From the NCBI GenBank assembly GCA_036172245.1, contig JAYWIR010000016.1, positions 1,798,001 to 1,862,000 on the forward strand: a stretch of DNA of 64,000 nucleotides. The letters run 5' to 3'. Below the pieces are notes generated by a model, which was not told where the DNA came from, did not search any database, and worked only from the letters and a program-made list of their open reading frames with translations. Both the position numbers and the translations under genes were made by a program. This DNA is from Raillietiella orientalis (Eukaryota). This document shows, piece by piece, positions 40,701 through 43,700 of this stretch (position 1 is the first letter of the stretch; every line of letters starts with the position of its first letter).

Positions 40701-43700
40701 GCCGGTACAGGCAATCTTCAGCTCTATGCGACCTCTCCTCTCCGTATGGTCGCACCCGCACAGGTTGGGGACGCTCTCCACGCACCTCTTGTGGACGTTC
40801 ATGTCGCATGCTGGAAGGCGGAGAGGCAGGTGAGGGGCTTCCGCGGGAGGCACGTGGAGGGACGTCCCGGGATGAGAACGGGAGATGAGGATAGGGGAAG
40901 GAAAGGAGGCAGCGACCACCACGGCGGCGGCGGCGGCGGCGGCTGAGCTGCATCTGTCCTCTTGATACAGGCGACCCTCTTCCAGGGAGCGAGAGTGGTC
41001 AACAGAAAAGGAAAGAATGGGCAAAGGGCAAGCTCTCTCCTCCCTCGGCTGGCTTCCTCGTCCTCACGAAAATTGCGAGACGGGGGCATGTCCTTCCTCC
41101 CTCCACCGACCCGAGAACGCCTTGGAAAAGGGGGGAAAACAAATGGGAAAAACAAGGGTCGCCCAGCCACCCCAGCCTAGTTGACGAATCGACCTGGCAG
41201 CGAAGAAAGCTGTTCCCCTCCCGCACCCACTCACCCCACCACCACCACCACCAACACGCACAGACCATGCTCCCCCCCTCTTGCCTTCACGGGAGCCCGA
41301 AAGGATGGACAGGGGAGGTCTCTGCAGAAGCGGAGGAAGGAGGAAAAAAAGAGGGGGCGGGAATAAATCCACTCCCCTGCCGTAACGAAGATGAGAGCAG
41401 AAGCAGCTCTCTTTCGCCTGGCAGACCCTCCTTCCCCGCCAGCAACCCGGAAGACTGCACCGAGACCTTGCTCCCGGAACGTCGCAGGAAGACAGAGGGG
41501 GAAACTCCCGCGACCAGGAGCAGCTGCTCCCCTGGAGGTCGTCTGGAGGAACGACGAATGCACCTCGTCGTCGAGTGCGTCCGTAGAGTCCAGGCCGCGA
41601 GAAGCGCAGTCGACGGATGGGAGTGAGGGTCAAGGACCCCTCCTTCTGGAGACCCCCTTTGGGTGCCCGAGGAGCGAGTCTGATGCAGAGGGAAGTGCAG
41701 AGGCGCATCTCCCCACCTTGAAGACCGAAGAGTGCGCCAGCATGCGAACGGGGGACGCAGCGTGGTGGCGACGGGGAAAAGAGGGGGTGGGAAGATGACC
41801 CTTAGCAGGCAGGAGGGTAGCGAGGCGAGGGCCAGAAAAGCCACCTGCAGGGACGCAGCCGCACCCCCGAGCCAAATCCCTCTCCATGGCGCAGGAGGAG
41901 AGAAGGGGGGGGAGGAAGGGCCTGGAACGACAAGACTCGTCTCGGATGGGGGCAAGGAAGAGACGAGGGAATGCTCCCTCGGCCTGCGCCCCTCCCATCC
42001 ATCCCGCTTGAGGACTAAACGAGGACGAGGGGCTGTGTCGGTCTGGAGGAGGAGGGGGGAGTAGGCAGTAGCCCTTTGGAGGCTACGGGCATCCTCCCCT
42101 CTCCTTTCCCCGCTCCTTTTTTTCCTTTCCTATCTCCTTGTTGGGTTTTTGTTTTTTTTATGAGTGCAGAAGTTTCGAAGTGCGGGAGAAAAAAGGGGCA
42201 AGGAAGAAAGGGGGAGGGGGATAGGTGACGTGTTGGGTCGGCCGGTCGAAGACGCCGCGTCGGTCTCGGGAATGTTCAGAGGTCTGCCCTCTCACCTTTC
42301 CTCTCCCGGATGGCGGCACCCTTGATCTTCACCATGAGAGGGAAGAAAGCGGAGGGTCGGAGGAGGAGGAGGGGAGTTGGGGAGGGGTGGAGAGAGGTGC
42401 TAAGCGTCCCCTTCGACGAGCGGCCAACCACCCAACGGGCCAGAGGAGGAGGAGGTCAGGGTGGAACAGGGGGATTCCCCTGGTCCTGTGCAGAGCGGCA
42501 CGAGGAAGGGAGGCAGAAGAGGGCGAGAAGGCTGCCGCCGCCGCCGCCGCTGCCTCCACTGCGTATGTGGCAATCATCTCCAAAGTCATCAGGCGTCCTG
42601 GTGCTGGAATCGAATACGTACATGCACATTTGTATCCCTGTTTGAAAATCCCGTGCAGGATCGTCCCACAGTGGTCACAGAAAGTGGGGGACGAGAAGGT
42701 GAACGGGGCGAACTTGTGGCGGATGCAGTCCAGCTGCAAGATGCAATCGAGAACAAACAAACAAAAGCAAAGCAAAGGGGGGGGGAAAACAAAATGGCCG
42801 CGGCAGCGGCGCCACGCAGGAGCGCCTTTCGTCGTCGTCGCAAAATGGGGGGGAGGGACAACGGGGAGTGTGCGTGTGGCGGCGGCAGTCCACATGCTTC
42901 CAGAATCCTCCTCCTTCTCCCCTTCCTCTCTTTCTCGAGGAAGAAAAGGAGGAGGAGCCGGGAAAAAGACTCGGGAAAAGGAGTTGGTGGTGGCAGATGT
43001 GTTCCTGCGACCGCGGCGGGCAGGGGCGAGGAAAACAGGCAGATCAGATGAGGCGCAGGAGAGGAGAGAGGCGCTGGTTGCTCCTTTCGTCGCCCGCGCC
43101 CCACCCTCTGCAGTCCATCCTACCCCTTTCCCCACCTCTGTATGGCAGCGACGACGGAAACAGGACAAAGAGGGTTGCGTGCGAAACCACCCCGAATTTT
43201 TTTTTGTTTTTTTTGCAGGCAGTGCTACCCCACCCCCACCCCATTCCAACCCTTGAAAAAGAGAGAGGGGGAGAGATAAACAACAAGCATGCGGGGGAGC
43301 CATGCGCGGTGGTCAAGAGCTTCCTCTGCGCATGAGCGTGCGAAGCAGCAGCAGCAGCAAGCCAGGCTCAGACATGCCGCGGGACAAAACAACTTTCAGG
43401 TCCACCCCCACCCCACCCCCCACTTTCGTGATAATGCCGGGAAGGTGCCGGATAGGCGGCTGGAAAGAGGAGGAGGAAGAGCGGGAGAGGCCAAGGGGCG
43501 TCCTCCCTTCATTTACCTTCGCACTTCATCCCCTGATGGATGACTCCATACAAAAGTGACCCGCAGTGGTCACAAAACGTCGGACTACCGTAGGTGTGAA
43601 CTTTGAACCGGTGTTTCGTACGAAAATCCTGTAAAAAAAAAAAAAAGGGAAAGGACCAAAAAAGGGAGGGAGGGAGGAAGGGGGAGGCGACTGCTGAAGG

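Follow-up and report, generated by a model that had tools for sequence, protein, structure and literature searches.

A tandem exon 4 pair in a Pkc53E-type protein kinase C gene of Raillietiella orientalis, probably providing two C1B variants by alternative splicing

The locus studied here raises the question of whether a single gene for a conventional protein kinase C (cPKC) can provide two kinases that differ only in the diacylglycerol (DAG)- and phorbol-sensing face of the C1B domain. It lies in a stretch of 64,000 nucleotides from Raillietiella orientalis (contig JAYWIR010000016.1, positions 1,798,001 to 1,862,000), which was analysed as a whole and is referred to below as the window; unless otherwise stated, coordinates are positions in it. 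A preliminary description of this DNA had proposed that two duplicated exons, here called 4A and 4B, are mutually exclusive and exchange part of the C1B domain. We estimate at about 0.8 the probability that the window contains a Pkc53E-type cPKC gene with a tandem exon 4 pair, from which two C1B variants are produced by alternative splicing. To preserve the reading frame, exactly one of the two exons would be included, constant exon 5 would complete the domain, and one gene would thus give rise to two kinases. Exon 4A would provide the form usual in cPKCs, in which Tyr occupies the "DAG-toggling" position 22, and exon 4B, which would also be spliced in R. orientalis, the alternative with His.

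All exons concerned are read on the minus strand. Exon 3 (47431-47513), encoding the end of C1A and a linker, leaves in phase 0 through the donor GAC/gtaagt at 47431, and an intron of 3802 nt (43629-47430; GC content 0.63) separates it from exon 4A (43517-43628). Exon 4B (42622-42733) follows after 783 nt (42734-43516; GC 0.59, containing GGGGTGGGG-like G-runs), and exon 5 (40682-40810), the constant C-terminal part of C1, after a further 1811 nt (40811-42621; GC 0.62); the start of exon 5 at 40810, following ccttccag, is exact whereas its end is approximate. Both 4A and 4B measure 112 nt, pass from phase 0 to phase 1 and encode residues 1-32 of C1B, in a Tyr22 form in 4A and a His22 form in 4B. 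Exon 4A is preceded by a T-rich tract, starts at ag/GAT and ends at GAAG/gtaaat, and exon 4B starts at cttgcag/CTG and ends at GCAT/gtacgt; the codon split with exon 5 reads Ala via 4A and Ser via 4B. Minus-strand reading thus agreed in every detail with the preliminary description as to the two same-phase exons of 112 nt between exons 3 and 5, their AG and GT sites, translations and zinc ligands, and the translations equally gave Tyr22 in 4A and His22 in 4B.

The reading frame stayed open when exon 3 was joined to exon 5 through 4A, and also when it was joined through 4B. With both exons included a stop appeared 57 codons past exon 3, inside 4B, whereas with both skipped it fell at the fourth codon of exon 5, so that the claim that including both or neither breaks the frame held. 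Because of the frame, 4A and 4B are mutually exclusive at the protein level, and transcripts with both or neither would be removed by nonsense-mediated decay. The proposed exclusivity is also in line with the annotation of the same swap as isoforms of one gene in many insects, described below.

Adjacent, homologous, equal in length and phase and each with its own AG and GT, 4A and 4B have the make-up of a tandem-duplicated exon pair. They are identical at 57 of 112 nt and at 18 of 37 residues, and differ at 18 first, 13 second and 23 third codon positions. No third copy of exon 4 was found elsewhere in the intron by tblastn at expect values (E) up to 1. The open frame of 4B, which sits within an open reading frame (ORF) of 327 aa, is not in itself evidence of coding, since open frames are ubiquitous at a GC content of around 60%: 111 stop-free ORFs of at least 200 aa occur in the window. 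Its GC content ranged from 53 to 66% in 2-kb windows, with about 60% overall.

The resemblance of both exons to C1 domains is not due to chance, as both matched positions 1-32 (of 53) of the Pfam C1_1 profile well above its cut-off of 26.5 bits (43.3 bits and E 3.3e-11 for 4A; 41.4 bits and E 1.3e-10 for 4B), and among the 85 other long ORFs scanned, out of the 111 mentioned above, only that of exon 1 (C1A) gave a C1 match. Both exons carry H1, P11, C14, C17, G23, Q27 and C31. In 4B the zinc-ligand spacing H-x12-C-x2-C-x13-C is complete, with exon 5 supplying CDMNVHKRC...C, and the conserved non-ligand residues P11, G23, Q27 and G28, whose roles in C1 domains have been described (PMC9110374, accessible in part), are all present. 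Exon 4B departs from a typical C1 at position 22 of loop beta34, where Trp or Tyr would be expected and His is found; when 4B is aligned to residues 102-133 of PKC-beta, this His stands opposite Tyr123. The block that is swapped comprises the first four zinc ligands as well as beta12 and beta34, the two loops that bind ligand and membrane.

The weight given to position 22 in the preliminary description, according to which Trp or Tyr at this site tunes DAG affinity, is backed by the accessible part of PMC9110374. There, residues 20, 22 and 24 of loop beta34 are reported to insert deepest into the membrane in PKC-delta C1B structures, the residue at position 22 to reorient upon ligand binding, and exchange of Trp for Tyr or of Tyr for Trp at C1B position 22 to alter the apparent affinity for DAG (PMC9110374). 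The Trp/Tyr switch between novel and conventional PKCs concerns this same position on the deep-inserting beta34 loop; in that case the two residues come from paralogues, whereas here Tyr and His would come from one gene by splicing. His is less hydrophobic than Tyr or Trp, and His22 might lower the membrane and DAG affinity of C1B or make it pH-dependent. The C1B rim of the 4B isoform would then be less lipophilic and possibly sensitive to pH, which would give a different DAG threshold.

The gene as a whole extends from 10574 to 53347 on the minus strand. It has about 15 coding exons with GC-rich introns between them, its ATG exon lying near 53347-53165 and its last coding exon at 10723-10574. 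With barnacle and springtail cPKC queries, tblastn recovered C1A, C1B, C2, kinase and C-terminal tail in this order on the minus strand, with C1A formed by exons 1-3, then the two candidate exons and then the rest of C1B; the barnacle query matched 4A with E 1.4e-17 and 4B with E 2.5e-10. Pfam assigned C1_1 to the ORF of exon 1, to 4A and to 4B, C2 to the ORF at 36442-37206 and Pkinase to the ORF at 20240-21349. The domain order of a conventional PKC (C1A-C1B-C2-kinase-C-terminal tail) is therefore present in one gene. Beyond the PKC exons, no Pfam match above cut-off was obtained in the 85 ORFs scanned, and no second gene was recognised. GC content at third codon positions (GC3) was 0.57 in 4A, 0.76 in 4B and 0.80 in the remaining exons pooled, the GC3-poor exons of the gene being 4A and exon 10 (0.52).

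The same swap was found in other insects. Annotated cPKC pairs, named "protein kinase C, brain isozyme" or "protein C kinase 53E", belong to the same family and exchange the same 37-residue block, located between ...GADSD and CDMNVH, with Leu-Tyr-Gly in one isoform and Leu-His-Gly in the other at positions 21-23. Such pairs were obtained for Cloeon dipterum (XP_065343548.1 with His and XP_065343544.1 with Tyr, otherwise identical over the 260 N-terminal residues printed), Spodoptera frugiperda (XP_035440496.1 and XP_035440495.1, respectively) and Bombyx mori (XP_021202990.2 and NP_001036978.1, respectively), and a His form was obtained for Aedes aegypti (XP_021711547.1). The protein searches were made with a kinase-exon query and with a profile of the His-type block, and the matches considered are the best 120 of each search. 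Among the matches listed, His22 forms occurred in Ephemeroptera, Odonata, Hemiptera, Hymenoptera, Lepidoptera and Diptera, and unique C1B peptides included at least 16 with His22 and at least 59 with Tyr22, none of 59 Tyr-type peptides having His at position 22. Further named cluster members (n = 29) gave 21 His forms, seven Tyr forms and one without a match. No His form was found in the chelicerate, myriapod, springtail, barnacle or Daphnia entries among the matches listed, which is not evidence of absence.

Wherever both exons were seen in one gene model or contig, the order was 4A followed by 4B. Two gene models, from Manduca sexta (P0068) and Trichogramma kaykai (P0121), run through both blocks in this order; with the Tyr22 and His22 blocks joined by translated intron, they are annotation errors arising from the exon pair. 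A scan of metagenome contigs with the His-type block profile gave 80 loci with 86 C1-like exon peptides, 74 of them with Tyr, seven with Trp, one with His and four with other residues at this position. A metagenome contig of 6.8 kb and about 40% GC (L056) contains exon 3, a Tyr22 exon of 112 nt and, 1057 nt further on, a His22 exon of 112 nt, as in the window, with AG and GT sites throughout. The architecture of the window is thus reproduced in an unrelated genome. Another contig (P0034), of 2210 nt, encodes a cPKC of 674 aa with a His22 C1B, a size relation which indicates a spliced transcript. Its C1B begins with LD, like that of window 4B, its C-terminal tail is divergent, and it formed a long branch beside the barnacle in the whole-protein tree (support 99/97; 98 without exon 4). 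This sequence might represent either the 4B isoform of a crustacean or a separate paralogue of the eye type. Further variants at this place of the protein were seen in Trichoplusia ni X3 (P0098) and in P0049, P0061 and P0091; in one of them a 7-residue block replaces exon 4, and several begin with an alternative first exon located immediately ahead of exon 5, so that both C1 domains are missing. Fly Pkc53E-PD likewise has neither C1 domain (PMC10318518, accessible in part).

In the literature, Pkc53E is listed among the fly genes with tandem-duplicated exon substitution and is grouped with vertebrate PRKCB and nematode pkc-2 as parallel cases (PMC9741552, accessible in part). The Pkc53E isoforms PA-PF of Drosophila melanogaster, as annotated in FlyBase, are reported to vary in their C1 domains, different DAG affinities have been suggested for them, and the PB mRNA is enriched in photoreceptors (PMC10318518, 2023). 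Fly Pkc53E is the orthologous cPKC gene, and it is our guess that the difference between PB (679 aa) and PC/PE (678 aa) is the exon 4 swap. According to the preliminary description, the fly eye kinase InaC may also have LLHG at this place. Vertebrate PRKCB, with its beta-I and beta-II forms, is likewise a cPKC gene with tandem-duplicated exon substitution. The PRKCB event, unlike the one considered here, swaps the C-terminal tail and not the ligand loops of C1B. The preliminary description had left room for the pair being new, and this did not stand, as it is already annotated in Pkc53E orthologues and the gene is listed as one with tandem-duplicated exons in the accessible part of PMC9741552. 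The window pair is another instance of an insect cPKC exon 4 pair that is already widely annotated. The literature covered, subscription journals lying outside it, contained no paper on the C1B exon pair or His22 beyond PMC9741552 and PMC10318518, and no measurement on the His form.

For phylogenetic placement, the row of the window was assembled from exon pieces joined by coordinates, and in a second tree the exon 4 block was cut from all rows. Arthropod cPKCs formed a clade in the whole-protein tree (100/99), and the window cPKC fell inside a group of 17 winged-insect rows (ultrafast bootstrap, UFBoot, 80; Shimodaira-Hasegawa-like approximate likelihood ratio test, SH-aLRT, 90; SH-aLRT 85 without exon 4), its order within the group not being resolved; it was 85-88% identical to every winged-insect cPKC compared, with none closer. 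Seven His22 rows from Odonata, Hymenoptera and Hemiptera clustered together (100/97), and this cluster dissolved once the 37-residue block was removed. Mixed isoforms thus group species by exon choice, and they can distort species-level trees.

The two copies in the window differ markedly in how closely they follow their counterparts. Judged by its sequence, window 4A is an ordinary 4A, with 94.6 bits on the arthropod 4A profile vs. 70.8 on the 4B profile, an end branch of 0.04-0.05 changes per column in the exon tree and a nonsynonymous distance (dN) of 0.065 to the 4A exon of L056. Synonymous distances (dS) were saturated in this and every other informative pair, so that only dN is usable. 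Window 4B has the layout of the insect 4B class, with His at position 22, a length of 112 nt and a position downstream of the Tyr22 copy, and in the exon tree with all 37 columns the 17 His22 rows, window 4B included, lay on one side of a branch (SH-aLRT 99). Of its 37 columns, 18 depart from the 4A consensus and 17 from the 4B consensus, yet these include none of the 12 columns in which 36 other arthropod peptides show no variation (P = 2.7e-5 and 6.8e-5 for random placement of the changes). The preliminary description suggested selection on both exons, and the low dN of 4A together with the 12 retained columns of 4B supports constraint on both copies; such a pattern suggests that window 4B is not simply decaying.

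Several results, gathered here, weigh against taking window 4B as a plain member of the insect His22 class with a described fly equivalent. Its scores were 68.2 bits with the 4B profile and 59.9 with the 4A profile, 19-21 of its 37 residues agree with either class, and its end branch measures about 0.73-0.75 changes per column. Most insect 4B exons carry W3 (15 of 16), M20 (13 of 16), A, T or S at position 25 (16 of 16) and H26 (11 of 16), whereas window 4B has F3, I20, F25 and K26. The grouping of the 17 His rows rests on the His column, since window 4B leaves when the column is dropped and moves to the Tyr side, the other 16 rows remaining together (100/99). The approximately unbiased (AU) test rejected neither a single 4B clade (p = 0.38) nor window 4A and 4B as sisters (p = 0.22). 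The dN of window 4B to the 4B exon of L056 is about six times that of 4A. An exhaustive phmmer search of 4B against 1.84 billion representatives gave 879 matches at E up to 0.001 and no close relative, the best match being identical at 23 of 37 residues, and His22 was absent from all 163 C1 segments of the 147 representatives newly listed; these two negatives have little weight, as isoforms were collapsed at 50% identity. A word-index search with the 4B peptide alone gave no candidate. As for the fly, neither the identity of the exon nor His22 is named in the accessible parts of PMC9741552 and PMC10318518, so that the published event is not established as exon 4, and the 2021 preprint version of PMC10318518, in its accessible part, traces the difference between PA and PF to 8 residues in C1a.

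These observations can be accommodated in two ways other than a functional orthologous exon. In the first, 4B would be orthologous to the His22 exon of insects but under relaxed constraint in this lineage, spliced seldom if at all and turning into a dead pseudo-exon. The long branch, the higher dN, the loss of W3, M20 and H26 and the lack of a close relative among the search matches agree with this, as do the gtacgt donor, a pyrimidine tract less uniform than that of 4A, and an open frame that is uninformative at the GC content of the window; it is difficult to reconcile, however, with a 4B in which 17-18 of 37 residues have changed and all 12 invariant fold columns remain intact (P around 3-7e-5), which retains its AG and GT sites, length and phase, and which exceeds the Pfam C1_1 cut-off by 15 bits. 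The GC3 of 4B near that of the other coding exons points in the same direction, weakly, as the introns are also GC-rich. We regard such relaxation as improbable. The other possibility is that exon 4 was duplicated separately in this lineage to give 4B, with His22 gained convergently, in which case the pair would be mutually exclusive but 4B would not be orthologous to that of insects. Without the His22 column, window 4B is nearest to the 4A of Daphnia and to its own 4A, the sister arrangement is not rejected by the AU test, and window 4B has S9 and F3 in common with 4A forms. The same test leaves one 4B clade equally unrejected, though, and the all-column tree sets the 17 His22 rows apart; F6 and His22 are both confined to 4B forms, the order 4A then 4B is that found elsewhere, and the 23 of 37 third codon positions at which 4A and 4B differ speak for an old duplication. 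The lowest nonsynonymous distance of window 4B is that to the 4B exon of L056 (0.40, vs. 0.54 and 0.58 to the two 4A exons). Since the window protein falls within winged insects, six orders of which have the pair, a single origin is also more parsimonious. Shared His22 and F6, exon order, dN and parsimony thus favour 4B orthology as far as the sequences allow, and we consider a separate duplication very improbable, even more so than relaxation.

Returning to an exon pair that supplies two C1B variants, we looked at the introns for sequences that could bear on the choice between them. An inverted-repeat scan of 40800-47440 gave 101 pairs, mostly low-complexity GGA/TCC and GGC/GCC tracts, none of them a convincing case of competing RNA pairing. 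Two complementary tracts on the gene strand, (GGC)n at 42534-42554, some 70-90 nt past the 4B donor, and (GCC)n at 40923-40943, around 110-130 nt upstream of exon 5, form a pair of 21 nt with 95% complementarity that would loop out the 4B-5 intron; they are of low complexity, and such tracts are common here. The intron between 4A and 4B (42734-43516) contains, on the gene strand, G-runs including GGGTGGGG five times and GGGGTGGG four times, two clusters of which lie in the first 300 nt or so past 4A. Runs of G in introns can enhance splicing. In L056, the 4A-4B intron (4126-4548 of that contig) has TCAAATGG six times on the sense strand, for the most part as GTCAAATGGG, and a seventh copy lies at 3002; the seven copies in the 6.8-kb locus compare with 0.34 expected, seven being reached in none of 200 shuffles, and the window has none. 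Either a small satellite or a site for a splicing regulator, present in repeated copies, might account for the cluster.

What is new from the window is only one further case of the pair, together with a 4B of unusual divergence, and the remaining interest lies in that divergence and in the uncharacterised His22 form of the sensor. A tentative and rather doubtful proposal goes further: the His22 exon would be an old C1B class shared by six or more insect orders and possibly by a crustacean-like transcript, its membrane and DAG affinity being lower than in the Tyr form or switched by pH as the histidine is protonated, and window 4B would be a lineage-specific retuning of it and not a product of decay. 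For annotation, gene models running through both exons become recognisable as errors. As the swap exchanges both loops of the DAG sensor without altering the kinase elsewhere, it constitutes a natural experiment on the tuning of C1 at the position of DAG sensitivity. If the proposal were true, splicing would determine, in each cell, at which DAG threshold one kinase responds, for instance in photoreceptors, where fly Pkc53E-B is enriched, and the remodelled 4B of the window, with F3, I20, F25 and K26 but with His22 and all fold residues kept, would represent a retuning of the sensor.

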